From positions 74,732-138,731 of the forward strand of contig PKTG01000083.1 of NCBI GenBank assembly GCA_002869225.1: a stretch of 64,000 nt of DNA, read 5' to 3'. This document shows, piece by piece, positions 1,710 to 62,470 of this stretch; the stretch's first letter is position 1; each line of letters opens with the position of its first letter. Under the pieces are notes generated by a model. That model had not been told where the DNA came from, did not search any database, and saw only the letters and a program-made list of their open reading frames with translations. The position numbers and the translations under genes are program-made. Source of the stretch: Candidatus Muiribacterium halophilum. Lineage in GTDB: Bacteria > Muiribacteriota > Muiribacteriia > Muiribacteriales > Muiribacteriaceae.

Positions 1710-2836
1710 CAGATATTCCTCCTTATAAAGGAAACTAATTCATGTGGGTATATAGCCTCTCCATTTATCTTATTAAAAGGAAGGATATCGCATATACTTG
1801 AGGCAAATCTTTGTGTTGGAAGAAGGAGCTGACCCATGTTCATCTCAGGAACAAATATCTTCTTCTTGTCCTGCGCTTTATCAATAAGCACCGAGGATAT
1901 GAAAGGCCATATAGTCTTAGGTCTTAAAAGGCCTATCTTTATTCCGTGTTCATCACGAAGAGTCCTGATAGCCTGTTTAGCAGATCTTGCTACACATCCA
2001 GCTGCTAGTATCATATATTCTGAATCTTCAAGCTCATACTCTTCCCAATCAAGAATATCATCAAGATTATCATCGATCTTTCTAAACATCCTTTTCATAA
2101 AAGCATCTATCTGATCAGGTTTGGATGTAGGAAATCCATCAACATCATGAACAAGACCGGTAATATGGTATCTGTAACCTTCGCCAAAATCTGCAAAGGC
2201 AGGTACTCCAGAAGAGTTTCTCTCATAAGGGAAGAACCATTCATTAGGAACATCCGGAGTCTTTCTCTTAAAGGATTTATTCTTATCCACCTTTTCTATA
2301 TCTATCTTCTCTCTCATATGTCCTATCACTTCGTCAAGAAGTAGAATAACAGGTATTCTATATTTTTCAGAAAGTTCGACAGAACGTATTGTCTCTTCAA
2401 ATATCTCGGGTACTGTATGCGGATAAATAGTAATAATAGGATGATCTCCATGAGTTCCCCATCTAGCCTGAAGTATATCTCCCTGAGATGGCATTGTTGG
2501 AAGGCCAGTTGAAGGCCCACCTCTTTGAACGTTAACGATAAGACATGGAGTCTCTGTTATTACAGCGTAACCTATATTTTCCTGCATTAGGGATATACCT
2601 GGTCCGCTTGTTGCGGTCATTGATTTCAATCCACCAATAGAAGCGCCTATGATAGAAGCCATACTTCCGATCTCATCTTCCATCTGTATAAATTTACCAC
2701 CTAGTTTTGGAAGCTCTACGGACATTATCTCGGCTATCTCAGTAGATGGTGTAATAGGATATCAACCAAAAAACCTAACACCCGCTGCTAAAGCCCCATA
2801 TGCACATGCCTCATTACCCTGAAGTAGCTTCAACAT
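1709..2836 (-). CDS. 2-oxoacid:ferredoxin oxidoreductase, alpha subunit, interrupted as sequenced by an in-frame TGA at 2762-2764
   Basis: The track ORF 1709-2725 lacks the canonical N-terminus. The same frame continues upstream to the ATG at 2834-2836: [43 protein letters not shown]. The TGA falls where the conserved FF(A/G)GYPITP motif has Gly. Confidence 0.85.
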
Positions 2837-2839
2837 ATT

Positions 2840-3043
2840 TTACTCCTTATCCTTCTTTTTTATTATAACTGCATAATCGGGACATCTTAGTTCACATAGT
2901 CCGCATGCAATACATTTCTCTTCATCAAAAACCGGTTTCCCTGCCATCTTATCCATTGTTATTGCTCCCTTTGGACAAAACGCTGCACAGATCCCACAAC
3001 CTTTACACCAACTCTCATAAAATTCGATTTTTTTATCCATCAC
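2840..3043 (-). CDS. 2-oxoacid:ferredoxin oxidoreductase, delta subunit (2x[4Fe-4S] ferredoxin)
   Basis: 67 aa with two CxxCxxCxxxCP motifs (CKGCGICAAFCP and CIACGLCELRCP). It lies directly upstream of the alpha subunit. Confidence 0.8.
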   Translation of the reverse strand: MMDKKIEFYESWCKGCGICAAFCPKGAITMDKMAGKPVFDEEKCIACGLCELRCPDYAVIIKKKDKE

Positions 3044-3876
3044 CTATTCTCCCTTTTCAAAAAAGCCTTATAAGTATTTTTAAGAAGTGCAGCTCTAGTC
3101 ATAGGACCAACTCCACCAGGAACAGGTGATATCCATGAAGCCTTTTCTTTTACCGACTCAAAATCGACATCACCATAAAGTTTATCATCAATATAGGTAG
3201 TACCTACATCTACGATAACCACGTTTTCTTTTATCATATTTCCCTTTAAGAAGTTTGGTCTTCCTATTGCCATGATTATTATATCTGATCTTTTTAATAT
3301 AGTTTCAATATTTTTTGTCCTTGAATGACAGACGGTAACAGTACCATTTTCAGCTGTAAGGAGTGAAGCAACAGGTTTCCCAACAATATTACTTCTTCCT
3401 ACAACAGCAACCTCCTTACCTTCGATCATAATGTTGTTTTCTTTAAGAAGATCGATTATACCGGCTGGTGTCGCTGGTAAAAAACAATCCCTTCCCTGTA
3501 ACATCTTACCGAGATTCATAGGATGAAAGCCATCAACATCCTTTTTTGATGATATCGTATCTATTACAACACTTTCATCAATATGTGATGGAAGAGGAAG
3601 CTGAACCAATATACCATGAATAGTATCATCTTCATTCAATTGTCTAATTATATCAAGTAATCTTTCCTGAGTGGTATTTTCTTCGAGTTTGATTTTTTTT
3701 GATGTTATACCTATCTTTTTGCAATCTCTTTCCTTCATATTTACATAAAGTTTAGAAGATGGATCTTCTCCTACAAGTACGACTGCAAGTCCAGGCTTTT
3801 CTGGTGATTTGGAAATCTTTTCTTTGAGTTCTTTACGCATCTTCCTGGCAAGTTCTTTCCCGTTTAAAATCTTCAT
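3040..3876 (-). CDS. folD: Bifunctional methylenetetrahydrofolate dehydrogenase/cyclohydrolase
   Basis: 278 aa. It carries characteristic FolD motifs: GILVQLPLP, DVDGFHP, VVGRSNIVGKP and PVPGGVGPMT. Confidence 0.92.
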   Translation of the reverse strand: MKILNGKELARKMRKELKEKISKSPEKPGLAVVLVGEDPSSKLYVNMKERDCKKIGITSKKIKLEENTTQERLLDIIRQLNEDDTIHGILVQLPLPSHIDESVVIDTISSKKDVDGFHPMNLGKMLQGRDCFLPATPAGIIDLLKENNIMIEGKEVAVVGRSNIVGKPVASLLTAENGTVTVCHSRTKNIETILKRSDIIIMAIGRPNFLKGNMIKENVVIVDVGTTYIDDKLYGDVDFESVKEKASWISPVPGGVGPMTRAALLKNTYKAFLKRENR

Positions 3877-6504: not shown

Positions 6505-6509
6505 TCTAT

Positions 6510-8826: not shown

Positions 8827-8884
8827 AAAATAGTCAACTCCATTTAACGTTTTAAATTTAGTTTAAAAATATATCAGAAAAGAA

Positions 8885-8980: not shown

Positions 8981-9075
8981 TTAAGTTTCATCTCCTTTTT
9001 TGTGAATTTTTTTACCAATTTAACAATAAATACAATAAAAAGTCAATTTTTTTTATTTTAAAACCTTTATTTAAA

Positions 9076-10185
9076 TTATTTTTCTCCATTTTTTTCTAAA
9101 AATCCATCAAATATCTTTTTCACTTTTTGTTCATCAAATCTTTCAAAATCTTTCAAATTTTCAGATATACGTTCCCTATTAATATAAACGTTCATGAGCG
9201 CTTGTTTTAATTTATTATCAGAAAACTCTTTTTCCTCGAGAAGAATAGCAGCATCCTTTTCGGAAAGCATCTTTGCGTTTACATACTGTTCATTACCTGC
9301 TGATCCTTTTAAAGGTATCAGGACTGAAGGTATGTTATATTCTATAATATCAGATATCGTTCCAGCGCCTGCTCTTGCTAGCATACAGTCAATTCGAGCA
9401 AATATCTCAAGCATATCATTCCTTGGAAAAAATCTTTTATTTACAAAATCCATTTTATTGATTTTTTTAAATTAATTCTCAAATCTTTCTATATTTATTG
9501 GATTTGTTCCATATTGAAGAAATACTTCGAAGTTATGATTTATCCAATCTATATTCTTTAAAACAAACTCGTTAAGTATAAACGAACCATTGGCTCCACC
9601 TGTTATAAAAAGCAGAGGTTTATCTTTTTTTTGATCGTCTCTTAGATCATGAACAGGTTTATTTGATATTATATCAGATGGGTTACCAGAAAAAAGATAT
9701 TTCTCTCCCGAAAAACAACCAGAATCGAATGAATAGAGATTTATATCACTTAAACGAAATGCTAACCTATTAGCTATTCCCGGAATCGAAGTCTGTTCAT
9801 GTACGATTATTGGAATAGAAAGCATTCTAGCTGCTATTACGGGACCCAAAGATACATAGCCGCCAGTTGAGAGTATATACGACACCTTTCTTTTTTTTAA
9901 AAATCTGTAAGATTGGAAAATTCCGGAAAAAAAAGAAAAAAAGTCAGAAATATTTCTTTTATCAAGAGCTCTTCTAAACTTACCCGTACTAATATATTTA
10001 AGCTGAACATCCTTTATATTTTTAAAGATGTCTTTTTCAAAATCATTTCCACTACCAATATAAATAAGAGATTTATTGGGATACCATTTTTTGAAAAGCT
10101 CAAGAAACTTGACTGAGGCAAAAGTATGCCCTCCGGTTCCTCCGCCAGTTACTACTATATTTTCAGTCTCTAAGGTCAAACTCAT
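9076..10185 (-). CDS. murG: UDP-N-acetylglucosamine--N-acetylmuramyl-(pentapeptide) pyrophosphoryl-undecaprenol GlcNAc transferase, interrupted by an in-frame TAA at 9472-9474
   Basis: Track ORFs 9472-10185 (N-domain, GGGTGGH motif) and 9076-9453 (C-domain, ARAGAGTISDI...PSVLIP) share one frame. Only the TAA and six sense codons separate them (...IERFEN*FKKINKMDF...). Confidence 0.8.
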
Positions 10186-11947: not shown

Positions 11948-14947
11948 ATGAAAGATGAGAAGAGAGTTGACAGGTATTTAAGGACACTTCTTTTTCTTTT
12001 ACTTGTGGCTACTTCATCTACTTCGATGATAACACTACAATGGGTTAACACTGGTGAACCTGTCTTTCTTGTATTTTCTCTATGTTTCTTCTCTTTATAT
12101 ATTTTTTTCTTTCTTTCTTATAAAGCAATTATAAGGAAAGATTTTTCTACCATGGCTCGATTTCTTTTTTTAGGAGTCTTGATAATATATGTACCTTAAC
12201 AACTTCTTTTTAAGGGATTTGGAGTGTACCAGTTAATACTCAACTTCACCCTTCTCTTAATAACCGCAATTTACGCCTTTCCTAAAAAGGTCAGAAGTAT
12301 ATTGTTTTTAAGTTCGTTATATTTTTTCTTTCTACTTATAATAAATATAATCGATATACCTTGGAGAATAAATCCTTTTAACGACAATCTTCTTTTAAAA
12401 TATCAATGTATAGCTACAATCCTACCCCTTCTTACTTTTATTTTCATTATAATCAGAGAAAAACGATATAATATGAACCTTAAGATATTTACAGGTATGA
12501 TATTTACATCACTTGTACCTATTATATTATCAGGTATATTTGATGTTATAAGAGTTCATAAAAATCCTTTAATTTTAAATATATTTAACTATAATAATAT
12601 TCAAAATAATAGCAGAATAACTCAGAACCTTGCTCAATTTGATAAAACAGAGTTTTTTATGCTTTTTATATTTGTAAACTTTATCGTATTCATTTCAAAA
12701 ATCATTTCTGATTTTATTACAGAACCAATAAAAGATCTAATCGACACCTCCAGAAAGATATCTTCCGGAAATTTCAACATAAAAAAACCGGATGATGATC
12801 CAGGGGATGTTAATTACATTTATAACACTCTTTACCATACATCAAAGTCTTTTTCTGATCTTATCAACAGTTTTCAGGATGAAATATATGAAAAAAGCAA
12901 AGCGGAAGAGGAATTGAAAAGGACACTTTCTCAACTTTATCTTAGCGAGATGGAATTAAATTATATCGCAGAGAGCACAAAAGATGTCATATGGACTATG
13001 GATCCACAATTTAGATTTAAGTATATAAGTCCTGCATCTATTAGACACAGCGGTTTTACTCCAGAGGAAATAAAAAAACAAAGTCTAGAGGAACGTTACA
13101 CTCCAGAAACTGTTATTTTTCTAAAGGAGCTATGGCATAAGACAAAACTTACAGAAGGAAAAGCTGAATATAAAAACAAAAGATCAGAGTTTAGTTTTGA
13201 ATTACAACAGTACGCAAAAGATGGAAGAATAATAATAGACGATGTAAGAGCGACTCTAGTTTACGATGAATTAGGCTATATATCAGAGATGTTCGGAATT
13301 ACAAGAGATATAACAGAAAGAAAGAATTTTGAAGAAGAACTAAAAAAGACAAAGAGCAAACTCGAAGAGACAATACAGGAACTTAAAAATAGTGAGATAA
13401 ACTTCAGATTTTTAGCCGAAAACACAGCAGATGTCATATGGACTATAAACCCTCAACTACAAGTTGAATATGTCTCGCCTTCTATTAAAGAACTACAAGG
13501 TTTAACTCCAGAAGAAGCAATTTCTTATCCTTGGGAAAAGAAACTCACTCCAACAGGTATGAAGACTTTCTTAGGAATAGCTGAAAGATTCTTAAGCACA
13601 AACGGCGATCCTGAATATAAGAATAAGACTATCAGCATAACAGATACTATCGAACAAATACACAAAGATGGTCATACTTTCTGGACTGAAATAACTCTTA
13701 ACGTCATTTATGATGAAAAAGGATACCTTTTAAGAGCTGTTGGAGTTACCAGAAACATAAACGAAAGAAAATTGTATGAAGACAAGATAGAACTTATGAA
13801 CAAAAAACTTATAGAAACAAATAAAAAATTAAAATCAATTGATAATCTAAAAACCGAATTACTTTCTAATGTCTCTCACGAACTTCGAACCCCCCTTGCT
13901 GCAATAAAAGGTTATAGCGATCTTATTCACTCGGAAAAGTCCGGACCAATAACTGATAAACAGCGACATCAACTTGATGTAATCAAAAAGAACATCAATC
14001 ATCTTACCAATCTTATAGACGGTCTCTTATCTTACTCAAGATTATATTTTGGTAAAAACACATTGGATATATCCGTTTTTCCTATAATTGAACTCATTAA
14101 CAGCTCAATTGAAACAATAAACGAAAAACATAATCATAAGAATTTTATATTTAATTTCTATCCTCAGCAGGATCATTTTGTAAAAGCAGATTATGTAAGA
14201 ATAAAACAGGTCATATTAAATCTGCTTGATAATTCGTGTAAGTTTTCTGAGCCAGGGACTGAAATCAATATCGATATTAAATCAGATGATGATAATATCT
14301 TTATCTCAATAAAAGATAATGGAATTGGTATCCCGGAAGATGTCAAGGATCATATATTTGAAAGATTCTATCAGGTCGACTCCTCCACAACCAGAAAATA
14401 TGGTGGAATAGGTCTTGGACTTTCCATAGTAAAGAAAATACTTGATCTTCATGAAAGTCATATTGAACTTGAAAGTTCTAAGGATAAAGGGACATTTTTC
14501 TGTTTTTCATTAAAGCTTTCCAAAATACCGGCTGAGGATTCTAATAAAGAGAACATTAAAAGTAATATAAATAAGAATAATATTGGAAATGATCAAAAGT
14601 CTGTACTTATTATTGATGATCAGAAAGATATTTTAGACTTTCTTTCTGAGATGTTTGAGCTTGAAGGAATAAAAGCTTATTTTCATAATTCTTCGGAGGG
14701 AATACTAAATAAAATAAATATACATAAACCATCAATTCTATTACTTGATATCTCTCTCGGAGGTGAAGACGGGCTTGAGATCTTAAAATATATCAGAAAT
14801 AACAATATAAACATACCAATAATAATGTTAAGTGCGTTTACAGAAGATAGATACAGACAAAAAGCCAAAGAATACGGAGCAGTTGATTATATTACAAAAC
14901 CTTTTGATATGGATGATCTTCTAAGTATAATAAAAAATCATTTTTGA
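11948..14947 (+). CDS. Hybrid sensor histidine kinase (multi-TM N-terminus, 2x PAS, HisKA, HATPase, receiver), with an in-frame TAA at 12197-12199
   Basis: 12224-14947 encodes the PAS repeats, SHELRTPL (H-box), DNGIGIP/GGIGLGL (ATPase) and a C-terminal REC domain. The upstream 83-codon TM-rich ORF (11948-12199) has GAGGGG about 12 nt before its ATG. It is in the same frame, separated by the TAA plus eight sense codons. Confidence 0.75.
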
Positions 14948-17985: not shown

Positions 17986-19146
17986 TTATGGCATTAGATC
18001 TTCGGCTGATTTTGCTCTTCCTGTTATATTTATATTATCAAGATACGCATCAAACAGATTATCGTATCCAGCACCTCCACCAATATACAATCTGTTATCA
18101 AATTTAGGGTAAGTACCATCATACAACATTGGATAAAATGTGACTGTAGGAGTGGTGTCAACCGGATTATATTCTGCACCATTAATATAAAACATTACCT
18201 GGCTTTCAGTATTAGAATTTGAATATACTATAGCAAAATGATTCCATTTATCCTCTATATTATTTGGGAGTGTAGGAAAACCTAATAACGAAAAAATATT
18301 TAAAGTGAATAATTTACTTGTAGTAGCAGTAGGATTAGCTGTCTCTGAAGCATTATATGCCATAAGTTCCAACACAAGATCATTTCCACTTATATAAACC
18401 GAAACTTCTCTAGGATCTGAAGTTCCTGCAGGATAGGTGTTGTTCTTAGCATCTATTCCCTTCATACTGACAATAAGTTGGTCTCCTCCATATGATGCAG
18501 GGATATCATGCAGACTTAACCAGAATTCAATTGTTATATTTCTAAAGGCAGGAATCGATACCGGGTACTCAACTCCTCCACCTGGATTACCAAAATCTAG
18601 CCCATTCCCAAACCCAAGCATACCTTTACCAATAGTTACATTTGCACTATTGACATCCGGTTCTGCTGATTCAGGATAATCTGCTTTATAGGAGTTTGTT
18701 CCTCTATCAAAATTTGCAAGAAATATTGTTTCCATATCTTTCTGAGCTTTATATGGAGGTGTAAATTTGACCCTTAACTGTGACTCAAACCCTGATCTTG
18801 TCTTTGTCTTTGTTGATACTGAAAAACCTCTAATATTTTTTTCAATTGAGAAAGAATAACCGAAATTATTTCTAAGGTCTCGAGCATAATCAGGTTTTTC
18901 AGGAAATTTAACCAATCCTGCATTTAATACCTGTTCGACCTGACTTGGCCAATTACCATATATATGTCTATATTCAACTATACCTTTTTTAAGAACATTA
19001 AGATCGTTCTGAGCTCTTTTTAATTGAACATTTTCAACGACGTTCTTATAATATCCAAACATAGCCACGGCAAGTACTGCAAGAACTGCTATCACCATCA
19101 TTGTTTCAACTAAAGTGAAAGCTTTAGTTTCTGAGTTTGATCTCAT
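17986..19146 (-). CDS. Prepilin-type N-terminal cleavage/methylation protein with a LamG/concanavalin-like domain
   Basis: 386 aa. It has a class III signal (KAFTLVETMMVIAVLAVLA). The C-terminal part resembles a LamG-type lectin fold (LYIGGGAGYDNLFDAYLDNINITGRA). Confidence 0.65.
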   Translation of the reverse strand: MRSNSETKAFTLVETMMVIAVLAVLAVAMFGYYKNVVENVQLKRAQNDLNVLKKGIVEYRHIYGNWPSQVEQVLNAGLVKFPEKPDYARDLRNNFGYSFSIEKNIRGFSVSTKTKTRSGFESQLRVKFTPPYKAQKDMETIFLANFDRGTNSYKADYPESAEPDVNSANVTIGKGMLGFGNGLDFGNPGGGVEYPVSIPAFRNITIEFWLSLHDIPASYGGDQLIVSMKGIDAKNNTYPAGTSDPREVSVYISGNDLVLELMAYNASETANPTATTSKLFTLNIFSLLGFPTLPNNIEDKWNHFAIVYSNSNTESQVMFYINGAEYNPVDTTPTVTFYPMLYDGTYPKFDNRLYIGGGAGYDNLFDAYLDNINITGRAKSAEDLMP

Positions 19147-42208: not shown

Positions 42209-42280
42209 AAATTCTCCTACAAATATTATTTTATAAATGATACCTTTAATCGTTTTTTTGTTCAACAACAAAAGGCATTT

Positions 42281-42478
42281 TAGCAACTCTGTTGCCGTTG
42301 ACAAACTTCGTTTGTATATTCAACTTACGTTGAAATGCTCACCTTTGCTGAGTGTCTCGGACTTTATTTTAATCTAACCTAAACACTTTCCTTAGGAAAG
42401 CATATGAGCTTTAGCTCATCATTTTTTTCGAAGAAAAAATAATTTGGCTTTTGCCAAATAACCGTTATCTGCACTGTT
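42281..42478 (-). repeat. Intergenic multi-hairpin element, copy 1 (possible structured RNA or REP/BIME-like repeat)
   Basis: Eight consecutive stem-loops beginning directly after the upstream stop codon. It is about 90 percent identical by eye to the inverted copy at 50121-50319. On the minus strand the hairpin at 42319-42334 reads TTCAAC-GTAA-GTTGAA, a GNRA loop. Confidence 0.7.
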
Positions 42479-44757: not shown

Positions 44758-45342
44758 CTAAAAATCAATTATTATTCCTTTTCTTTCAGGAGTCATTATT
44801 GTGATCTCCTGTTTGATCTCTTCTGATTTATGAGCAAAATCTATCTGACTCTCAATAGAACCAATATGATGTGGCATGATCTCAAACTTATCAACAAGAT
44901 CATATACATCATCAATAAATATTCCTTCCTGTCGATCATCAAGTATGTTTTGAGCATTTTTTAATGATAATCCAGGCACTTTAAGAAGTTCATTTAGATC
45001 ACAATAGTTTATTTTTATTTTTTGTTCATCATCTATCGATTTTATTTTTTCTTTAATCTTATCACTATCACCAAAAAGATTTTTCACAGGTTGAAATTCT
45101 CTTTCGTCTACTTTTCTTATATATATTTTATCTTTATTCTTTAACGTACCATTTAACATATCTTTTATTAATTTATCATTATAAGGTCCAAATTCTTTCA
45201 TATCCACCAGTAGGATATATTTTTGATCCTCTTTATTTTCCTTAAAAATATTTTCAATATCTATAAGAAAGGAAAATATATTATTTTTAGACCTTTCCGA
45301 CATCAAAGTTATCTTAATCTCATGATCCTCGTTTATTAACAA
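44758..45342 (-). CDS. Hypothetical protein with a ComEA-like helix-hairpin-helix motif
   Basis: 194 aa. DLNELLKVPGLSLKNAQNILDDRQ resembles the ComEA/HhH DNA-binding motif. Confidence 0.45.
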   Translation of the reverse strand: MLINEDHEIKITLMSERSKNNIFSFLIDIENIFKENKEDQKYILLVDMKEFGPYNDKLIKDMLNGTLKNKDKIYIRKVDEREFQPVKNLFGDSDKIKEKIKSIDDEQKIKINYCDLNELLKVPGLSLKNAQNILDDRQEGIFIDDVYDLVDKFEIMPHHIGSIESQIDFAHKSEEIKQEITIMTPERKGIIIDF

Positions 45343-45738
45343 TTAATTAACCGCTATCTTAAAATCTTTAATATCTTTATAATCTAAAAAAACAGGTTTA
45401 GACATAAAGTTTTTATAATGCATTCCTTTAGTGGTAAGACAAAAACCATTTTGCATGTTCTTTTTTATAGTATCATCATAGAAAGCAAGAACCTCTTCTT
45501 CGCCTTTAATATCAGGGAATATGTTTTTTACTTTTTTGATAAATTCAGAAGAAATGTGACCAAAAGATCTGATTCTTTCAGAAGATGTAACATTTTTTTC
45601 AAGTGCTCTAAAAATATCTTTACCTTCACCGAGCAATTTAACTGGTATTTCTTTTTTTTCTAAAACCACTTTTTTTCCACAGTATTTACAAAATTTTGCG
45701 TTTTCATTTATTTTTCTCCTACAGTGATCGCATATCAT
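45343..45738 (-). CDS. Zinc-ribbon protein with a PH/GRAM-like C-terminal domain
   Basis: MICDHCRRKINENAKFCKYCGKK is a CxxC...CxxC ribbon. GGAGG lies 11 nt upstream of the ATG at 45736-45738. Confidence 0.5.
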   Translation of the reverse strand: MICDHCRRKINENAKFCKYCGKKVVLEKKEIPVKLLGEGKDIFRALEKNVTSSERIRSFGHISSEFIKKVKNIFPDIKGEEEVLAFYDDTIKKNMQNGFCLTTKGMHYKNFMSKPVFLDYKDIKDFKIAVN

Positions 45739-49998: not shown

Positions 49999-50120
49999 AA
50001 AGATCCTCCGCAACAATTTTTTTCTTCAATTATAATTCAGTTATACACTTTTAGCAAATAATGAAAACAGTAAACGATAGAACTTTTTTCGTAAAGCATA
50101 AAGCGTGAAGCGAAACGGAT

Positions 50121-50319
50121 AGAACTGTGTCGATAAGGTTATTTGGCTAAAGCTAAAATATTTTTTCTGTGAAAAAAATGATGAGCTAAAGCTCATATGC
50201 TTTCCTACGGAAAGTGTTTAGGTTAGATTAAAAAAAAGTCCTCGACACTCAGAAAAGCTGAGCATTTCAACGCAAGTTGAATATACAAACGGAGTTTGTC
50301 AACGGCAACAGAGTTGCTA
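50121..50319 (+). repeat. Intergenic multi-hairpin element, copy 3 (inverted relative to copies 1 and 2)
   Basis: It is the reverse complement of copy 1 with only scattered differences. The hairpin at 50266-50281 reads TTCAAC-GCAA-GTTGAA on the plus strand. Confidence 0.7.
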
Positions 50320-50447
50320 ATCTGATTTAAAAATATTTCTGCTTCAAAATATTAAAATAATATGCTACAATTTAGGTATTATATTAAACAGTCCCTGTTT
50401 TGCTGATTATACAGTTTTACGGTTTACTGTTTTTTTTCGGAGGATAA

Positions 50448-51320: not shown

Positions 51321-52841
51321 TTGAACAAAAAAAAACAGCTATGTTTAATATCTCTATTAATAATCTATTTACTTTTTCTTATTAGTTGTAACAATAAACA
51401 TAGTTTTAAAGAGATCGTAAAACTGAAAGCTGTTTTTTTCTTAAAACTAAATAAACTACAGACTAAAGAGCTTAATGATATTTTTTCGGATGATTCCAGT
51501 CTAAATATCTTAAATAAAGAAATTATCCCGAAGCATGGTAAGTATATATGTCTTCCTGAAAATTCCGGATTATTCTAGGAGATTCGAGGAAATCTATTCG
51601 ATCTTAAAAATAGGATATTGACTTTCTTTGTAGTCTCAATTCAGGCGCTTGGGGAAAAAGGTTTTTTAAAAAAAAGACTCCTATTTGTAACTAAAGACAT
51701 AGAAACTATTAAATATAACTATGTTATTACTTCCTGGAATTTTGATTTTAAAATAAAAAGAAATAAAGATAAGACAATAAATATAAAATCAAAGGACCTG
51801 ACAGCCACTTTCAAACCCAAACAGGACTCAAAATACTTAAAGTTTATTGTAAGTCCCGAGATTAGTTCTGATATCTATATCAAATACGGCAATAAAAGAT
51901 CACGACAGGTTAAAATTAAAGTAGCTTCATTTGGAAATATTTATTCATTTAAAACAGATGATATATTAAAAAAAGATAATACATACGAACTTCAAATATC
52001 TGATTTTTCAACTGATCTTTCAATCGAAAAAGACTTTGATCTAGTCTTTAAACCTATAAGTACAAGAGATATGGTGATTGATATCTATGACACCATACCT
52101 ACAAAATGTAGAATTAAATGTCATGAGGATGATATTAAAGTAGTATTTCCATATGAGAAAAGCATTATTGAAAAAAAAGAAAATAGTATATATGTAAATG
52201 GGAAAAGTAATTTCAACAATCTTTTTCTTCTAACAGATAATGATTATTCCGAATTCAAGGCTTCCAACATAGATTTAAAAATATCAAAAAAGATTACAGA
52301 TCAGAATATATCTCAGAAACAGTTATCTATATTCACCACTATATTATCCGATCTTACAGATATAAATTTAAAAAATAAAGATGTGTTTGTTTTCAGTGGA
52401 AGAAGCAGCGGAATAATAGAGTATCCTCTAATACTTTTAAATCCCAAGACACTTTATAGAAGACCTGATAACACGCTTATGACTTTCAATCAGACCTTAA
52501 AAAAAAATCTACTTCATGAAATCACCCATCTATATACGGGTAAACTTCCTCATTTTAATCCATATTTTTATGAAGGTATGACTACTTTTTTAGAGTTTTA
52601 TATTTTTTCAGGATTATACAATGATGATCTTTTAAGATTCATTGACTCTGATATTACTCTTATAGATTTTAAAAAAATATCACACGGTCTGATAATCGAG
52701 AATCTTTTGAAAAGAGACGATGTTTATTATACAGGAGCTTCTTTCTTTTATTCACTTTTTAAAAAGGATAATGATATTATAAAAAAGATCTTAAATAAAA
52801 AAGCGCCTGCCGATATAGCAGACGCTTTAGATCTGAATTAA
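51321..52841 (+). CDS. Lipoprotein with an HExxH zinc-metalloprotease-like domain, interrupted by an in-frame TAG at 51576-51578
   Basis: The 85-codon ORF MNKKKQLCLISLLIIYLLFLISC (lipobox) and the 407-codon ORF (LLHEITHLYTG...YFYEG) share one frame. They read ...ENSGLF*EIRGNLFDLKNRILTFF... across the junction. The large ORF has no signal peptide of its own. Confidence 0.65.
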
Positions 52842-52853
52842 TTAACTTCTATT

Positions 52854-55838
52854 CTAATAAAAAGCTACTTTCAATAAATTATTTGTGGAATCAAAATATG
52901 ATACAACAGGAATCTTATCATTATAAAGATCCATTGAGATATATGACCCCACATTACCAACTGAATCAACATCTGTATGAATAAAATTACCTGAACCTGT
53001 ATAATCTATCGATACATAAAGATCCTGATTAACATTATCCTGATAAGCAAGATAGAATGCACCTTCCTCACCTAGCTCAAGATCTAAATAGTTTCCTGTA
53101 TTAGCAGGTGTAAGATCCATTCCCATATTGACAAAATTCCACATACCTGGTGACACATCGGCTCTTTTCATTACTATTGCATTGGAATTTGGATTAAAAT
53201 ATGCTACTACCGCCTTGTCAAATTGATCGTATTCAACATCAAAATAAGTAAATGAACTACCTGCTGCTGCGATCTCATATGTATCGACCCAACCAGGTTG
53301 CGGTACTGCCTGATCAAGACTTGTCGCTTTAGAATATATAAGACTTGTTTGAACTTTCGACATAGCTATCTTTATATTCTGACCGGCAGATGAAATATAA
53401 CCGATTTCCTGCGAATCCCAACTTACCCCGTTCCATTTAAAGAGCTGTGGACTGGTATCAGTCGCATTGTAGGCCGCAATTAAAGGAATCTCTCTTGTAT
53501 CATATACTATATCGTTAAAAAGCCCAATATCAGGTCCTGCTGAACTTACATAAGAAGAACCTGTCCATATGTCCCCAGTAGGACTTAGTATATATTTAAG
53601 CTGAGCTGCTGATGCATCATAATAGGCAACATGAATCTGATCAAAATCATCGATTACCATAGATGGTGATTGAATATTTCCAGTATCAACTGTGTTAAAA
53701 TACCAATTTTTCCTATCAAACATAGCGTATTTGATCAAGGAATTCCCAGTATCCGAGTAAACTATATGAACATTACCTTTAGAATCAATTTTAAGCTCAT
53801 CGCCTTGACAAGTTACATTATCAACTACCTGAATCTCCCAAGTGGAAATTATTCCAACTTCATTTGTTACAAATACACCATTTTCAAAATAACTTATTTC
53901 AAGTGTCGATGGACCATGTAAAGTCGGCTGGAAGAAATTGTTTCCTTCGAGCTTACCTAATCCTGATTTTATTTTAGCTTCAAGACCATAATAAACATTT
54001 CTGGTCGTTCCATCATTATACTGGACTTGCGGATTAAGCTGAGACATATAGGCACCTCTATAAGAGGAGGTCTGTATCTCATATGTATCAAATAAAAGAG
54101 AGGTTGGAGCACTTTTTATTATTACATCAGGTACAAGTAATACTCCGACTATGACTTCTACTGTTCTTGACTCAGTTATAGCTCCACCTGTGTTTATATC
54201 GATTCTATAGACACCTTCATTGACATTATCAAGGAAGTAATAACCTGAAGCATCTGTAAAAACATTATTTACAAGTGTATTTCCTGTATCGTAAACTTCA
54301 ACACTTGCTCCACCAACAGGAGTAAAGAACTGATTCCTTACAAAACCTGTTATTCTTCCTATCTGAGCTTTTGGAAGCATTATTATCTCAGGTGTTATCG
54401 TTGTTCCATTAAACACATTTGCTATAACATAAGATTGTTTTGTTCCATCAGATGCTTTAACGGTATATATACCAGGATTTACTCCACTAAATGAATAGTT
54501 TCCTGTAGCATCTGCTGTTGTACTTAAGATAATATTGTTATTTTGTGTAAGTTCAACCGTAGCACTTGGAACTGGTGTATTATCAAAATATTTTACCTGA
54601 CCCGCAATATTTCCAGGTGTAAAAGAAACACTTTCTGTATCAAGATACAATGTCATTGCAACCTCAGTAGAACCTGGAAATACAGTTGCAAGAACATCAT
54701 CATCTCTATATCCTGTCTTATCTGAATAAATGATATAACTTCCAGCGGCAATATTACTGAAAGAATAATAACCACTTGCATCTGTATAAATATTTCCTAA
54801 TGACTGCTGATTTATCCATATCTCTACACTAGCTCCTTGAATAGGTGAACCTGAGATATTTTCAAGTACATAACCTTCTATATTTCCCGTACCTGCTCCT
54901 GCTGTCGCAACATACATGACAAGATTAGGTGCGTTTATATCTTTTCTTTCAGGACTTATTATTACTGTTGGAATATAAACAGAAGAAAGACCTGTCTTAC
55001 TTGATACTATCTGATAACTTCCTGCTGCAATTCCGCTGACATTATAATCGCCATTTGAATCAGTTGTTGTTGTTCCAACAGTTGTCGCTCCGATCTTTAT
55101 TTCTACTGTAGCACCAACAATAGCATTCCCGCTCTGATCTATTACCTTACCGTAAATCGCACCTGAAATAGTTGGTACATTTAATGTCATAGAAGTAGCA
55201 GAAGTATTCACTCCAGCAGATACACTTACAGACTGCTGAAGTATCTCATATCCATATCCTGCCCACACTTCCATAGTATAGCTTCCCACAGGAACATTAC
55301 TTATAGTATATGCACCACTTGAATCAGAGACTGCCATATAGGATGTTCCAAGCAGATATGCCATTATACCGTTATGACTGGTCTTTACATTCATAAAAAC
55401 CGTACCACTTATACTTCCAGTTGCTGTAACCTGAATATTAAGTGCTGTCGGTGCTTCCTGTCTGACCGAGACTTTCATCGCCTGACCTATTGTTGTCTGC
55501 CCCTGTTTTGCCTGTATAAAGTAGTCTCCTACAGGTACATCCTTAAACTCAAAACTTCCTGTCTCATCTGCCTGTGTATATATAAGTGACGGTACATCCT
55601 TTGAAACAGCGTTTCTTACCTTTGATACCGTCAATGTCTGTCCATTTATTAAATGTTCTGCTATAACTAAAGCTCCTGCTACATCTTCACCTTTTAACGT
55701 CCCTTTTAATATCCCATAACCAGGATTTTCTGCTACTACCTGTGTGTTTCCTCCATCATCGCTTCCTCCGAAACACCCTACAAGCATAAACAGCATGATT
55801 ATTGTTGTTATAACCAGATTTCCGTATGTCCTTCTCAT
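52854..55838 (-). CDS. Large surface lipoprotein: tandem CarboxypepD_reg-like (Ig/prealbumin) domains plus C-terminal propeller-like repeats
   Basis: 994 aa with the lipobox MLVGC. It has repeated G.Y.I.NV..G.Y modules and C-terminal HVAYYD...LKY repeats. It is a paralog of 56669-59677. Confidence 0.7.
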   Translation of the reverse strand: MRRTYGNLVITTIIMLFMLVGCFGGSDDGGNTQVVAENPGYGILKGTLKGEDVAGALVIAEHLINGQTLTVSKVRNAVSKDVPSLIYTQADETGSFEFKDVPVGDYFIQAKQGQTTIGQAMKVSVRQEAPTALNIQVTATGSISGTVFMNVKTSHNGIMAYLLGTSYMAVSDSSGAYTISNVPVGSYTMEVWAGYGYEILQQSVSVSAGVNTSATSMTLNVPTISGAIYGKVIDQSGNAIVGATVEIKIGATTVGTTTTDSNGDYNVSGIAAGSYQIVSSKTGLSSVYIPTVIISPERKDINAPNLVMYVATAGAGTGNIEGYVLENISGSPIQGASVEIWINQQSLGNIYTDASGYYSFSNIAAGSYIIYSDKTGYRDDDVLATVFPGSTEVAMTLYLDTESVSFTPGNIAGQVKYFDNTPVPSATVELTQNNNIILSTTADATGNYSFSGVNPGIYTVKASDGTKQSYVIANVFNGTTITPEIIMLPKAQIGRITGFVRNQFFTPVGGASVEVYDTGNTLVNNVFTDASGYYFLDNVNEGVYRIDINTGGAITESRTVEVIVGVLLVPDVIIKSAPTSLLFDTYEIQTSSYRGAYMSQLNPQVQYNDGTTRNVYYGLEAKIKSGLGKLEGNNFFQPTLHGPSTLEISYFENGVFVTNEVGIISTWEIQVVDNVTCQGDELKIDSKGNVHIVYSDTGNSLIKYAMFDRKNWYFNTVDTGNIQSPSMVIDDFDQIHVAYYDASAAQLKYILSPTGDIWTGSSYVSSAGPDIGLFNDIVYDTREIPLIAAYNATDTSPQLFKWNGVSWDSQEIGYISSAGQNIKIAMSKVQTSLIYSKATSLDQAVPQPGWVDTYEIAAAGSSFTYFDVEYDQFDKAVVAYFNPNSNAIVMKRADVSPGMWNFVNMGMDLTPANTGNYLDLELGEEGAFYLAYQDNVNQDLYVSIDYTGSGNFIHTDVDSVGNVGSYISMDLYNDKIPVVSYFDSTNNLLKVAFY

Positions 55839-55857
55839 GTTCTCCCCCTGTAAAATT

Positions 55858-56601: not shown

Positions 56602-56668
56602 ACGGTATCCCTCCGAGTTATATTATAAAGTTTAAATATATATTTGTAAATATTCATATGCATCCTCA

Positions 56669-59600
56669 TTAATACATAATCACTAAAAGATCAGTGTTTG
56701 TTGCATCATAACATGAAAATACAGTATATTTTTTCTTAATCAGTTTAAAAGATAAATAAGATCCAACATCACCGGTTGTATATACAGTATTATATTTCCA
56801 GCTTGTATCACCAACTTGTGCATAACTGTAACCTAGATCTCCATTTACACTATCATAATAAGCGACATATATTCCATCATATTCTCCAAGTTCAAGATCT
56901 ATATAAGTCCCATTAACTGGAGTTGCCTGAGCATTCACGACATCTGTAATAGCCCCACTACTAACAGGAGTACTTTTTACAAATCCCTGCATCGCCATAG
57001 TATCATATGCAGCTATATATACATCTGAATCGCTTTCCTCAATATCAGTATAAGTAGGTGCTGTTGAAAATGTTGCTACCTCTTTTGTACTCCAAAGTCC
57101 AGTTATTTCCAAAGTACCATAGTTAAGTGCATTAAAACTCTCGTTTGCATAGGCGATTCTATATTGATGTGTATTTGGTGAAACAATCAAAGAGTTATAA
57201 GATCCAGTTATAGAAACAACATCCTCTACCGGTTCAGTCTGCCACGCTGCACCATCGTAATGATAAACTATAGGTCTTGAATTTGTTGCATCCTGAGCGA
57301 TTATCACAGGGAGTTCGTTTGTATCATAATCTATATCAATATATAGACCAACATTATCCGCAGTAGATTCAACATTTTCTGTTGCCCATCCAGCACCATA
57401 GTTGAGAGCATATTTAAGATTCGCATTTGTCACATCCTGATAAGCTATATGGACGTTATCAAAATCATCCACGACAAGATCACAATAATCACCAACATTT
57501 CCAGTTGAATCGACTGTCTCAGGTATGCTCCATGTCCCATCATAATAAGCATATTTAAGATCTGCATTTGTATTATCATAATACGCTACATGTATTCTAC
57601 CGTCTTTTCCTATGTCAAGTGATGAATACATACCAACATCATTTGTACTATCAACGACATCAACTTCCCATGTAGATGTAAACCCGAGATAAGCACTTTG
57701 AGAAATACCATTTTCTATATATTTCGCTTCAAGCGTTCCCTGTTGATGTGAATCAGTATAAAAATATGATCTTTCAAGATCTCCTGTTCCCTGTTTTACT
57801 CTCCAGAAAAGATCTGAATATACTTCATATGTAGAACCATCACTGTAATTTGCTATTCCAAATATCGAGGATAGATCTATTCCTTTAACAACACATGTAT
57901 TAATATTTGTCTGAGAAAGTGCTAATGAATTTAAGGTAGGTCTAACAAAGAAATCAGGAACATTTGTATATCCTATTATGACCTCAACAGTCCTTGACTG
58001 TGTCTGAGCACCTGTTACAACACAATCCACTCGATAGACACCTTCGTTAACCGGATTTAGATTATAATATCCGGAAGCATCAGTATTTGTTGTAGAATAT
58101 AAAGAACCCGTAGAATCATAAAACTGAACACCTGCATTATTTATAGGTAAACCGTTATGGTTTCTTACAAAACCAGCGATGTTTCCAGATCTGACATTTT
58201 GTAATCTTATATCAGGAGCAACATCTGAGGCTCCTGAATACATTTGAAACACCACAAAATTTTCATTTTCAATATCTTTTGATGCTCTTATAGTATATAG
58301 ACCAGGAGTCAATCCGGTGAAAGAATACATTCCTGAATCTGCTCCGTTTAAAGTATATGAAGCTACTACATTGTTGTTAGACATGACCTCAATTGTAGCA
58401 ACATCTACAGGAGTATTATCATAATAAAGTACCTGTCCAGTGACATTTCCAGGTGTGCTACCGGACGAATTATCAACTTCAAGTTCAGTTACACTTGCAA
58501 CTTCAGTTGTTCCAGCAATAACAGTTACAAGATACCCTTCATCCCAATATCCACTTTTGTAAACTTCTAATGCATAATCACCAGCCGTTATATTACTAAA
58601 GCTGTAATAACCGGTGGCATCTGTAAAGACATTTCCTAGAACATGCTGATTTAATCTTACCTCAACACTTGCTCCCTGTATTGGACTACCAGTTCCTTCC
58701 TCAACCACATAACCTTCTATATTTCCAGTAGCTGCTCCAGCTGTCGCAACATACATGACAAGGTTTGGTGCGTTTATTTCCTTTCTTTCGGGACTTATTA
58801 TCACCGTTGGCATATACACTGTTGTAAGTACACTCTTACTTGCATAAAGCTCATAACTTCCAGTAGTTATCCCACTTATTGTATAATCTCCATTTGCATC
58901 ACTTGTTGTCGTGGATACTACTGTTGCTCCACTCTTTAATTCTACTGTTGCTGATGCTATCGCATTACCACTTTGATCTATTACTTTTCCGTATATGTTT
59001 CCTGATATTGTCGGCTTAGTCAATGTCATCGCACTTGCACTTGTTGTAGTACCAGCTGATACACTTACTACCTGCTGTGCTATATCGTATTCATATCCTG
59101 CCCATACTTCCATAGTATAGGTACCCACAGGAACATTGCTTATTGTATAAGCTCCGCTTGCATCAGATATTCCCATATATGATGTTCCTAGAAGATATCC
59201 CATTACTCCGTTATGGGTACTTGCTCCACTCATGTTAAACGTTCCGCTTATACTTCCTGTTGCTGTAACCTGTATATTAAGTGCAGTCCGTGCTTCCTGT
59301 CTGACCGAGACTTTCATTGCCTGACCTATTGTTGTACCACCTTTTTTAGCCTGAATAAAATAGTCTCCAACTGGCACTTTTTCAAGTTCAAATGATCCAT
59401 TTTCATCTGCCTGTGTATATATAAGTGACGGTGCATCCTTTGAAACAGCGTTTCTTACCTTTGAAACCGTCAATGTCTGTCCATTAATTAAAGGTTCTGC
59501 TATAACTAAAGCTCCAGCTACATCCTCACCTTTTAATGTTCCTTTTAATATTCCATAACCAGGATTTTCTGCGACTATCGGTGTGCTTCCACCATCATCG

Positions 59601-59677
59601 TTTCCTCCAAAGCACCCGACAAGCATACTCATCATTATCAGAGTCGTTATCAGTAGATTCCTATAAGTTCTTCTCAT
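56669..59677 (-). CDS. Large surface lipoprotein, paralog of 52854-55838
   Basis: The likely start is MRRTYRNLL, with GGAGG 5 nt upstream. The N-terminal third is nearly identical to its paralog and the remainder is progressively diverged. Confidence 0.7.
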   Translation of the reverse strand: MRRTYRNLLITTLIMMSMLVGCFGGNDDGGSTPIVAENPGYGILKGTLKGEDVAGALVIAEPLINGQTLTVSKVRNAVSKDAPSLIYTQADENGSFELEKVPVGDYFIQAKKGGTTIGQAMKVSVRQEARTALNIQVTATGSISGTFNMSGASTHNGVMGYLLGTSYMGISDASGAYTISNVPVGTYTMEVWAGYEYDIAQQVVSVSAGTTTSASAMTLTKPTISGNIYGKVIDQSGNAIASATVELKSGATVVSTTTSDANGDYTISGITTGSYELYASKSVLTTVYMPTVIISPERKEINAPNLVMYVATAGAATGNIEGYVVEEGTGSPIQGASVEVRLNQHVLGNVFTDATGYYSFSNITAGDYALEVYKSGYWDEGYLVTVIAGTTEVASVTELEVDNSSGSTPGNVTGQVLYYDNTPVDVATIEVMSNNNVVASYTLNGADSGMYSFTGLTPGLYTIRASKDIENENFVVFQMYSGASDVAPDIRLQNVRSGNIAGFVRNHNGLPINNAGVQFYDSTGSLYSTTNTDASGYYNLNPVNEGVYRVDCVVTGAQTQSRTVEVIIGYTNVPDFFVRPTLNSLALSQTNINTCVVKGIDLSSIFGIANYSDGSTYEVYSDLFWRVKQGTGDLERSYFYTDSHQQGTLEAKYIENGISQSAYLGFTSTWEVDVVDSTNDVGMYSSLDIGKDGRIHVAYYDNTNADLKYAYYDGTWSIPETVDSTGNVGDYCDLVVDDFDNVHIAYQDVTNANLKYALNYGAGWATENVESTADNVGLYIDIDYDTNELPVIIAQDATNSRPIVYHYDGAAWQTEPVEDVVSITGSYNSLIVSPNTHQYRIAYANESFNALNYGTLEITGLWSTKEVATFSTAPTYTDIEESDSDVYIAAYDTMAMQGFVKSTPVSSGAITDVVNAQATPVNGTYIDLELGEYDGIYVAYYDSVNGDLGYSYAQVGDTSWKYNTVYTTGDVGSYLSFKLIKKKYTVFSCYDATNTDLLVIMY

Positions 59678-59845
59678 CTTCCCCTCCAAAACTTTTTTAA
59701 TATTTTAACATTTATCAATATTTTTAACAATATGTTTATAAGTAGAATTATATTAAATAAAACGTTCAATTTATTTTTTTATTACATTCTCAATAAATTT
59801 ACAGTATAATTAAATTAGTATTGAGTATTGTAGTAGGAGGTCCCT

Positions 59846-60742
59846 ATGAGAAGATTATTTCTATTTATTTATATATTAATATTTTCCCTATATTCTTTTT
59901 CAGCTGTACTAACAAGACCACAAGCTCCTTCTTTTGATGAAAGTTTTATGATAGCGACCGATATTGAAGATGCTGTTATCGGATGGTATCTTCTAGATAA
60001 AGATGGAGAAAAGACCATTACACCTCCTGATGAACTTTTACCTGATAACACAAAGAAATTAAAAGATAACCTTTTTTTAACAGATATGAATAAAAAAAAG
60101 AATTTCTCAATAATTGATTTCAAAGGATTTCCTAAGGAAATAAATGCAAGACATCTTATCTATTCAATCAGAAATAAAAATGGGAAAAATGAAGATGGTG
60201 TTGTTTCACTCACTCATTATAAGATGCATGGTCAAAGATATGCTTTAAAAGGTACAATAAACTATATTCCAGTTGAGATCACAGAAAAGATCTACTTATT
60301 TACAAAAGAGGATGACCCGATCAATTCAAACATCAAGATAGGCTGCATGATAGATGATATAGATGATCGTTCTATCACACAAAAAAAAATAGGAATATCT
60401 ATTGTTGATAAAAACGGTGATTTTATAGATCTAAAAAATATAAAAACAGAAAAAGATCGAATCTCAGAAGATGGTTCTGCTCTTATAAGAGATTTTAAAG
60501 ATAAAAAGATATCTGTCGATTGCATGAACGATAACGAGGAATTCTCGATTGAAGCTTATACGATTGATCTTGGTATACTAAGGTCACTTGATAAAAGACC
60601 TGCGATGATTGTATTTAGAATAATCTATAGCAATGACACCAGGACCGAGATGATAGGATACTTTTTAGATTCCGGTAATTTTGATCCAGATTCAAAAAAG
60701 ATAGAAATGGATAGACTTTCACGGATGAAAGGCTTGAATTAA
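59846..60742 (+). CDS. Hypothetical secreted protein
   Basis: 298 aa with a signal peptide (MRRLFLFIYILIFSLYSFSA) and AGGAGG upstream. Confidence 0.5.
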   Translation: MRRLFLFIYILIFSLYSFSAVLTRPQAPSFDESFMIATDIEDAVIGWYLLDKDGEKTITPPDELLPDNTKKLKDNLFLTDMNKKKNFSIIDFKGFPKEINARHLIYSIRNKNGKNEDGVVSLTHYKMHGQRYALKGTINYIPVEITEKIYLFTKEDDPINSNIKIGCMIDDIDDRSITQKKIGISIVDKNGDFIDLKNIKTEKDRISEDGSALIRDFKDKKISVDCMNDNEEFSIEAYTIDLGILRSLDKRPAMIVFRIIYSNDTRTEMIGYFLDSGNFDPDSKKIEMDRLSRMKGLN

Positions 60743-60769
60743 GATATATCCCTACAAAAATAATGCAAA

Positions 60770-60799
60770 GGGCTACTCAAAGGAGCAGCCCTTTTTTTT
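60770..60799. terminator. Bidirectional rho-independent terminator
   Basis: The hairpin GGGCTACTC-AAAG-GAGCAGCCC has one mismatch and is followed by a T-run. It lies between convergent genes. Confidence 0.65.
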
Positions 60800-60823
60800 A
60801 TACATATTCAAAAATACTGAGTT

Positions 60824-62470
60824 CTAAACATCTTTTTCTTTTTCTCCAAGCATCTCTTTCATATCCGTTTCAACATCAGATATTGGTTGTAGATTGAAAT
60901 TATCTTGTAAAAATTTGATGACTGGAGCTTTCAAAAAAGCAGGGACCGTAGGTCCAAGTTTCATATTCTTTACTCCCAGATGAAGAAGTGATAGCAATAT
61001 AACTACGGCTTTCTGTTCATACCATGACAATACAAGTGAAAGTGGAAGAGAGTTTATATCAGTATCAAATGCATCAGCAAGTGCTAGTGCTATCTTGACC
61101 GCTGAGTAAGCATCGTTACACTGTCCTATATCAAGAAGTCTTGGTATTCCACCTATATCTCCAAGTTCCATCTTATTAAACCTATATTTTCCACATGCAA
61201 GAGTAAGAACTATACAATCTTCAGGAACTTTTTCAACAAACTCTGTGTAATAGTTTCTACCCGATTTAGCACCATCACATCCTCCTACGAGGAAGAAGTG
61301 TCGGATATCTCCATTTTTCACTCCATCAATTACTTTATCTGCGACTGAAAGTACAGCATTTCTTGCAAATCCACCCATTATATACTTTTCTTCAAAATCG
61401 CCTTTGAAACCTTCCTGTGAAATAGCAGCATCTATAACTGCAGAGAAATCATAGTTCTCAACATGTTTTACTCCAGGCCACTGGACCAGCCCTGTTGTGA
61501 ATATCCTTTCTTTATAACTTTCTCTTGGTTTCTGAATACAATTGGTTGTCATTAATATTGAACCTGGGAAAGCATCAAACTCTTTTGCCTGATCCTGCCA
61601 AGCTCCGCCATAGTTTCCAACAAGATGTTTATATTTTTTTAGCCCAGGATAAGCGTTACAGGGAAGCATCTCACCATGCGTGTAAATATTTATTCCTTTA
61701 CCTTCAGTCTGTTTCAAAAGTTCTTCAAGATCTTTAAGATCATGTCCAGATACTAAGATAGCCTTACCTTCAACTGGTGAGATCCTGATATTTGTTGGTT
61801 CAGGATGTCCATAGGTTCCAGTATTAGCACGGTCAAGCATCTCCATGACCTTTATATTCTCTTCACCGACAGCCATAGATTTCCCAACCAACTCATCAGT
61901 CTCATATTTATCTCTTGATAAGAAATCCATTGTTTCGTGGAAAAAATTATATACAGCCTGATCCTCAACACCAAGAATCTGTGCGTGATCAGCATATGCA
62001 GCCATTCCTTTTAGTCCGTAAAGTACCAGATGATAAAGACCGGCATTTACATCACCATATCTTTCAAGATCTTTTTCAAGATTATGCTTTTTAGCCATTG
62101 CCTTAACCCCATCATCAGAGAAATCTCTTTCCCAAGTGAGCCATTCAGGCAATTTTTCTAAGCCATCTTTTTCATTATATTCATCTGCTAAACGATTTGT
62201 GATAATATCAGCTTTTTTAAGCCATTTAGCAATATCCTTCTCATCAAAATTTACATTTGTAACTGTTGTAAACAATGCTTTTACAACAAATAGATCCGCC
62301 TCTTTATCAAAGATACCTTTTTTGGCCAATCTTGAACTATACCAGGATATCCCTTTAAGAGAATGAATAAGTGCATCCTGCAGATTAGCAGTATCATTTG
62401 TCTTGCCGCATACTCCCGCCACTGTGCAAGCCTGCCCCTTTGCTGTCTGTTAACATTGATAACAATACAT
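60824..62470 (-). CDS. hcp: Hybrid-cluster protein (hydroxylamine reductase), interrupted by an in-frame TAA at 62450-62452
   Basis: The track ORF starts at an internal GTG (…VAGVCGKT). The same frame continues to the ATG at 62468-62470, which has AAGGAGG upstream: MYCYQC*QTAKGQACTVAGVCGK. HCP N-termini read MFC(F/Y/V)QC(E/Q)(Q/E)T...C.....CGK. Confidence 0.9.

Follow-up and report, generated by a model that had tools for sequence, protein, structure and literature searches.

In-frame stop codons in otherwise intact genes of an uncultured bacterium are very probably sequence errors of the G:C to T:A class

The window, by which we mean the whole 64,000-nucleotide stretch of DNA that was analysed, contains 47 complete genes. 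Eight of these, including pheS and murG, are truncated by stop codons that lie in frame within otherwise open sequence. The original prediction listed nine such stops. All nine were found at the positions given, in frame and with open sequence on either side, but the total was too low because a tenth stop (TAA, 45343-45345) had been overlooked. Three explanations were offered at that stage and none was chosen. To our knowledge, no in-frame stops of this kind are expected among 47 genes of a normal genome, and we confirm that their occurrence here is well above chance.

In four of the interrupted genes, a Pfam domain of the product crosses the stop. The gene for a 2-oxoacid:ferredoxin oxidoreductase alpha subunit (1709-2836, minus strand) carries a TGA at 2762-2764, where other assemblies of the same population have GGA (Gly25); base 2764 is A in the window and C in JGI 3300007102 and SRR5894287, and POR_N (residues 14-239) aligns across the site. 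In murG (9076-10185, minus strand), a TAA at 9472-9474 stands in place of GAA (Glu238), with A at base 9474 in the window and C in two assemblies. Glyco_tran_28_C (residues 192-349) spans this stop, and most of the C-terminal domain of MurG is lost. The TGA at 22543-22545 in pheS (22315-23355, minus strand) is crossed by tRNA-synt_2d (residues 95-345) and removes the C-terminal 76 residues of PheS. Elsewhere the codon is GGA (Gly271); base 22545 is A in the window and C in three assemblies and in an outgroup, L028, a relative with 86% protein identity. Finally, hcp (60824-62470, minus strand) has a TAA at 62450-62452 instead of GAA (Glu7), base 62452 being A in the window and C in ERZ794998, ERZ794999 and SRR5894289, and Prismane (residues 1-538) runs through it. 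The residues that had been assigned to three of these stops from homology (Gly25 of the oxidoreductase, Gly271 of PheS and Glu7 of Hcp) were all correct.

The other interrupted genes are less well characterized by domain. On the plus strand, a hybrid sensor kinase gene (11948-14947) has TAA at 12197-12199 where other assemblies have GAA (Glu84; base 12197 is T in the window and G in two assemblies), and a gene for a putative 506-aa lipoprotein (51321-52841) has TAG at 51576-51578 where ERZ794998 has TCG (Ser86). Gene calls in L034 and L036 give the latter a length of 506 aa; its product had no Pfam match, and its description as a metalloprotease is a putative label. On the minus strand, a giant gene of 3219 aa (31080-40739) is interrupted three times. 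The TAA at 31425-31427 corresponds to TAC (Tyr3105) elsewhere, with T at base 31425 in the window and G in three assemblies, whereas the TAA at 34449-34451 and the TAG at 40512-40514 correspond to GAA (Glu2097) and GAG (Glu76) in ERZ794998, the sole assembly covering these two sites. The tenth stop lies in a minus-strand gene of 326 aa (44758-45738), called at this length in L034 and L035, with weak Pfam matches to Zn_Ribbon_1 and HHH_3. The codon elsewhere is TCA (Ser132), and base 45344 is T in the window and G in ERZ794998 and SRR5894287. Sense codons were found at all ten sites in the comparison assemblies covering each, ERZ794998 being the one cited for the sites at 34449, 40512 and 51576. 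Apart from the 326-aa gene, the interrupted genes appear in other assemblies as single products of 375, 369, 999, 346, 3219, 506 and 548 aa. The earlier view that each pair of adjacent reading frames is one gene is borne out by the Pfam domains that cross four of the stops and by full-length calls in five assemblies.

We compared the window with five public assemblies made independently from the same population (JGI 3300007102, Logan SRR5894287 and SRR5894289, and ENA ERZ794998 and ERZ794999), which are ~99.8% identical to it. The alignment contained no indels, in agreement with the claim that frameshifts are not involved. There was no comparison sequence for window positions 33356-33950, and 17.6 kb was covered by just one other assembly when the main count was made. 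G:C to T:A substitutions made up 58 of the 80 differences private to the window (58 of 78 once ERZ794999 was added). These 58 changes lie between positions 743 and 62452 and include all of the stops. They are all singletons, as none of the 58 alleles is present in any of the five other assemblies. The SRR5894289 contig is the closest match: three G:C to T:A sites are its sole differences from the window over positions 59435-64000. The ten stops correspond to the changes GGA to TGA (twice), GAA to TAA (four times), GAG to TAG, TAC to TAA, TCA to TAA and TCG to TAG. The proposal that the stops derive from GGA or GAA by a G to T change held for seven of the original nine (GGA, GAA or GAG, changed at codon position 1), but not for the other two. 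These two (TAC to TAA and TCG to TAG), together with the tenth stop (TCA to TAA), involve a C to A change on the coding strand.

The 58 changes carry no trace of selection. They comprise 10 nonsense, 38 missense, 8 synonymous and 2 intergenic changes, where random G:C to T:A substitution would give 7.0, 43.5, 5.0 and 2.5, respectively. Most of the missense changes are radical, and two of them are in RpoA. The test does pick up selection in two controls: 13 of 20 other private differences were synonymous compared with 4.6 expected (p=7e-5), and natural polymorphisms included 29 synonymous changes compared with 11.4 expected (p=1e-7); the private differences outside the G:C to T:A class behave like natural variation. 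About 0.28% of the G:C pairs in the window have turned to T:A, regardless of coding. The changes are spaced uniformly over the G and C sites (KS p=0.69) and are symmetrical between strands (31 C to A and 27 G to T), with no strand-coordinated runs (33 runs compared with 29.9 expected). Any bias towards one transcription strand is not significant (p=0.057). Their sequence context is far from random: 53 of the 58 occur at YCN, where the G has a purine on its 3' side (p=5e-8), compared with none at GCN, for which 8 were expected. The change CCG to CAG was seen three times compared with 1.5 expected, numbers that are too small to judge.

The JGI contig displays changes of the same type. Six of its nine private alleles are G:C to T:A, and it has a nonsense change of its own, GGA to TGA at Gly35 (window position 28718), which cuts the JGI gene call to 176 aa compared with 211 aa elsewhere. 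We considered whether the window could be the JGI contig with random noise added, and rejected this because the window reaches 21.5 kb past the end of that contig, it has natural variants in common with different assemblies in turn, and the changes are strongly context-dependent. PheS of the window has 61% identity to that of the nearest named relative, Candidatus Muirbacterium halophilum, and in a species-level genome scan with PheS the best match was no closer than 48% identity, too distant for a comparison of orthologues. Pattern scans of JGI metagenomes at two degenerate rpoA sites, and of a genome collection at the pheS site, gave no match, even to the ancestral allele. As the scans were blind to an ancestral allele that is known in the JGI contig, those collections do not include this population, and the scans carry no information.

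In-frame stops in intact genes are a route by which new genetic codes are discovered, and it might be supposed that reassignment, suppressor tRNAs or programmed readthrough yield full-length proteins here. The interrupted genes are otherwise intact, some are essential, and both TGA stops replace a conserved Gly in two window genes, as in genetic code 25 (TGA as Gly, in Gracilibacteria and Absconditabacteria; in code 4, TGA is Trp). We nevertheless consider recoding almost certainly wrong. Stop reassignment of this sort does not sit with only two TGA sites in 64 kb, with TAA and TAG being hit as well, or with the absence of the sites from near-identical assemblies, which carry sense codons. All three stops terminate genes: the 47 genes end in TAA (23), TGA (14) and TAG (10), matching gene lengths in other assemblies. 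The replaced residues are inconsistent, TAA standing for Glu four times and once each for Tyr and Ser, TAG for Glu and Ser, and TGA for Gly twice. The relative with 86% identity has GGA at the pheS site while its pheT ends in TGA. In addition, 38 missense changes from the same mutational class accompany the stops at the chance ratio. Code 25 had been raised by a Gly at the TGA site in a stored PheS sequence, but public DNA reads GGA there, and those gene calls also continue across the TAA and TAG sites. In ~80 kb of the population's DNA the sole tRNA is tRNA-Leu(CAA), and no tRNA of the suppressor kind was found. Just outside the window, adjoining a PrmC-like methyltransferase, is a gene of RF1 type with PCRF and RF-1 domains. 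It was sound to argue from the essential roles of pheS and murG that they are unlikely to be simple pseudogenes; this essentiality points to an artefact rather than to recoding.

Real mutations are an alternative that we regard as unlikely. A lineage or single cell with failed 8-oxoG repair (MutM/MutY/MutT-type), or under heavy oxidative stress in vivo, might have been sampled after a burst of G:C to T:A mutations. Mutators of the GO system also produce a near-pure spectrum and a guanine-oxidation context like those of the window, and a few private G:C to T:A changes occur in the JGI assembly, which comes from the same population. However, surviving mutator lineages show purifying selection and shared, nested mutations, whereas the changes in the window are unselected singletons that truncate essential genes. 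Nonsense and missense changes are undepleted (pheS and murG being among the genes with stops), and the absence from all five other assemblies argues against nested descent. Scaled to the genome, truncation of eight in 47 genes together with two RpoA missense changes is incompatible with a growing lineage, and the lack of a significant transcription-strand asymmetry tells against mutation in vivo. Real nonsense alleles in a mutator, as first suggested, would fit the spectrum, but the lack of purifying selection speaks against them. It is likewise improbable that the window is a faithful record of a DNA pool from cells with massive guanine oxidation or lost 8-oxoG repair. If it were, the G:C to T:A load, stops included, would capture an uncultured Muiribacteriota-like bacterium in mutational meltdown in vivo, for example in a dying subpopulation or a single amplified cell, and would not be a laboratory artefact. 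We think it very improbable that the changes were introduced after sequencing, whether through a fault in assembly or polishing, through file handling or by deliberate alteration in silico, rather than by DNA chemistry. The 270-aa PheS fragment, PheT and a 302-aa protein (27099-28007) could not be matched exactly to any of 153 billion indexed gene positions, and the PheS that a protein store assigns to the window is full-length and has Gly271, both of which would be in keeping with changes of this origin. The neighbour dependence of the changes is unlike a simple software fault or a uniform random alteration, and a real public contig from the same project carries the same change type, including a nonsense codon.

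We propose that the stops arose as errors in this one copy of the sequence and are neither features of the organism nor recoding, a reading that we hold to be very probable. The suggestion of a G:C to T:A consensus or damage artefact is supported, as the stops are private to the window and fall within the set of 58. Most likely, guanines were damaged by oxidation (8-oxoG type), or some equivalent process made the errors, and these were carried into the consensus. Guanines followed by a purine are easily oxidised, and 8-oxoG pairs with A during amplification. We infer this chemistry because G to T changes that strongly favour guanines with a 3' purine are expected from the oxidation of guanine to 8-oxoG. 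According to this model, guanine would be converted to 8-oxoG and pair with A in amplification, giving G:C to T:A changes that would fall evenly over the G:C pairs and ignore coding. In coding DNA this AT-rich, ~12% of such hits would by chance turn GAA, GGA, GAG, TCA, TCG or TAC into a stop, and this proportion would account for the ten in-frame stops. The errors may have reached the consensus through very scarce template, very low coverage or a later processing step.

C to A and G to T artefacts from 8-oxoG formed during shearing have been described, with a context preference linked to the ease of guanine oxidation and at low allele fractions (Costello et al., 2013; PMC3616734). The changes in the window resemble these artefacts in being almost exclusively G:C to T:A, in a dependence on neighbouring bases that follows guanine oxidisability, in being absent from independent libraries and in ignoring coding. 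They differ in that they sit in the consensus, and in that their bias is towards a 5' pyrimidine of either kind (A or G after the guanine), whereas the hallmark CCG to CAG change is only mildly enriched. The latter point counts against our explanation, as does the frequency of the changes, since errors would reach the consensus at ~1 per kb only under uncommon conditions, for example with very low coverage or a bottleneck in the template. Furthermore, 8-oxoG mutagenesis in vivo gives the same spectrum and context, so that context alone is not discriminating.

The value of these results lies in a caution: clustered in-frame stops in intact, essential genes can mimic stop-codon recoding. Here, a comparison with sibling assemblies traces the stop signal to one class of base error. 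Recoding and error can be told apart by asking whether the stops are shared with near-identical assemblies, whether they belong to one mutation class, and whether missense changes accompany them at the chance ratio. Gene calls are also shortened by some G:C to T:A consensus errors in public assemblies of this project, the JGI contig among them.

The original prediction listed nine in-frame stop codons in the window, and all nine are there, in frame and with open sequence on both sides. It missed one, and the total is ten. GGA has become TGA in the 2-oxoacid oxidoreductase alpha subunit gene (2762-2764, Gly25) and in pheS (22543-22545, Gly271). GAA has become TAA in murG (9472-9474, Glu238), in a sensor kinase gene (12197-12199, Glu84) and in hcp (62450-62452, Glu7), and TCG has become TAG in the gene for a 506-aa lipoprotein (51576-51578, Ser86). 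One giant gene contains three stops: TAC>TAA at 31425-31427 (Tyr3105), GAA>TAA at 34449-34451 (Glu2097) and GAG>TAG at 40512-40514 (Glu76). The tenth stop (45343-45345, minus strand, TCA>TAA, Ser132) was found by a mechanical screen for neighbouring open stretches in the same frame, followed by a check against other assemblies. It cuts gene 44758-45738 (326 aa; weak Zn_Ribbon_1 and HHH_3 matches) in two, leaving one ORF of 132 aa and another of 194 aa.

The split ORFs had been read as single genes, and this reading is borne out by seven genes that are called full length in all other assemblies. Pfam domains run unbroken across four of the stops, namely POR_N in the oxidoreductase subunit, Glyco_tran_28_C in MurG, the class II core domain in PheS and Prismane in Hcp. 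Solved structures of PheS can likewise be aligned with the window's PheS over its whole length, through the stop.

The protein collection entry for the window's PheS is full length (346 aa) and has a glycine where the window has TGA. Its source DNA is a public JGI contig (3300007102, Ga0102541_1226792), which a base-by-base comparison showed to be the same locus, with 42 substitutions and no indels over 21 kb; it has GGA at the pheS stop site and TAC at 31425-31427. We also used four further independent assemblies of the same population (Logan SRR5894287, Logan SRR5894289, ENA ERZ794998 NODE_51 and ENA ERZ794999 NODE_15). Combined, the assemblies cover all of the window but 33356-33950, at ~99.8% identity and with zero indels, in agreement with the predicted lack of frameshifts. 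They differ from one another by ordinary polymorphism, and the window carries those variants as a mosaic, matching one or another. At the pheS site and at 24091, the ancestral base is the one present in an 86% relative that served as outgroup. No record was found by exact look-up for the truncated PheS or for two more proteins of the window, and exact-pattern scans of metagenome and genome collections gave no match, the ancestral allele being likewise absent. The closest named PheS relative (Candidatus Muirbacterium halophilum / Muiribacteriota) is 61% identical, a JGI metagenome protein (contig 3300005067) is 86% identical, and the best identity in a species-level genome collection scanned with PheS was 48%, with none closer. 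Judging by sequence identity, the lineage is poorly sampled.

Of 80 differences private to the window, 58 are G:C>T:A changes, which on the plus strand read as C>A in 31 cases and as G>T in 27. All ten stops fall among these 58. The changes are spread evenly over G/C sites (KS p=0.69), of which 0.28% are altered. They are strand-symmetric and show no strand-coordinated runs (33 runs, 29.9 expected), and transcription-strand bias among them was not significant (p=0.057). They do depend on context: in the C>A convention, 53/58 have a 5' pyrimidine, so that a purine comes next after the altered G (p=5e-8). No change lies in a GCN context, where 8 were expected, and CCG is mildly enriched (3 vs 1.5 expected). 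A guanine stacked on the 5' side of a purine is oxidised more readily than any other.

To measure selection on these changes, gene models of the other assemblies were projected onto the window, ancestral bases were restored and every possible G:C>T:A change was scored. At the 20,796 covered G/C sites, random changes would be 12.2% nonsense, 74.9% missense, 8.4% synonymous and 4.3% intergenic. The 58 observed changes comprise 10 nonsense, 38 missense, 8 synonymous and 2 intergenic (7.0, 43.5, 5.0 and 2.5 expected). This split is close to the random expectation, and thus the changes are not distinguishable from unselected ones. The test does pick up selection where it is present, as two controls show: 13 of the other 20 window-private differences are synonymous (4.6 expected, p=7e-5), as are 29 of 52 natural polymorphisms among the assemblies (11.4 expected, p=1e-7). 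The changes truncate 8 of 47 complete genes, pheS and murG among them, and RpoA carries two missense changes. Such a load is not bearable by a growing lineage.

Several other features of the window can be described. The giant gene encodes a 3219-aa protein (31080-40739, minus strand) with a prepilin-type N-terminus (MKKRGFTLVEIIITISLL...), whose sole match is a weak one to NosD. Its sequence suggests a pilin-anchored surface protein of giant size, and two nearby genes, 19124-19993 (N_methyl) and 17986-19146 (Laminin_G_3), may be further parts of that system. Two neighbouring paralogues on the minus strand (52854-55838 and 56669-59677) encode ~1000 aa each with CarboxypepD_reg repeats and share ~79% DNA identity over 1.1 kb. 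An inverted ~202-bp repeat, 91.6% identical, has intergenic copies at 42280-42481 and 50120-50320. The JGI contig ends at 42441, the long SRR5894287 contig near 42338 by coordinate calculation, and a short SRR5894287 contig covers 42412-50200 with both ends within repeat copies. As these ends fall in or near the copies, the repeat appears to break these assemblies. Natural differences, other than G:C>T:A, form two tight clusters: seven sites at 32838-33101 common to the window and SRR5894289, and six sites in 18 bp at 52657-52674 that separate the window from ERZ794998. Both clusters have the look of recombination tracts or of mixed strains within a mosaic population.

Readthrough, suppression or recoding, one of three explanations offered originally, does not hold. 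Of the 47 genes, 23 end in TAA, 14 in TGA and 10 in TAG, pheT of the 86% relative is terminated by TGA, and the residues replaced by any given stop codon are inconsistent. The JGI gene calls span TAA and TAG sites too (3219-aa giant protein, 999-aa kinase), so no one genetic code accounts for them. The only tRNA in ~80 kb of the population's DNA is Leu-CAA. Just past the window's right end (contig L038, 1-972), a 357-aa gene has PCRF and RF-1 domains, and a gene for a PrmC-like methyltransferase comes after it; by this domain content, the genome has a predicted class I release factor. Together, the normal use of all three terminators, the inconsistent residues and the TGA-ended pheT rule out recoding. 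It is unlikely that a real hypermutated cell or subpopulation lies behind the changes; it would need to be non-viable and without a link of descent to any other sampled member of the population.

The explanation that stands is the first of the three, a G:C>T:A artefact: every stop belongs to that class and is private to the window, and no selection is seen. C>A/G>T artefacts are known from 8-oxoG made during DNA shearing, their context preference being ascribed to oxidation potential; they have low allele fractions and peak at CCG>CAG (Costello et al. 2013, PMC3616734). The window changes share their class and context dependence. However, they are consensus bases and show no more than a mild enrichment at CCG, so the match to this artefact family is good but incomplete. 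The errors may have come in with a damaged template, through a consensus built at low coverage or during later handling. The JGI contig has similar errors to a lesser degree: of the 9 alleles that it alone carries, 6 are G:C>T:A, with five in a YCN context. One is a nonsense change (G>T, GGA>TGA, Gly35, window 28718, in gene 28616-29251, plus strand) where the window and both Logan assemblies have GGA; because of it, the JGI gene call is 176 aa rather than the 211 aa of the Logan assemblies. The fault would thus seem to lie in the libraries or data of the project and not to be confined to the window, with like errors in the public record. In sum, the stops most likely come from a G:C>T:A error process, of which guanine oxidation would be the likeliest cause, and they are not a biological feature.
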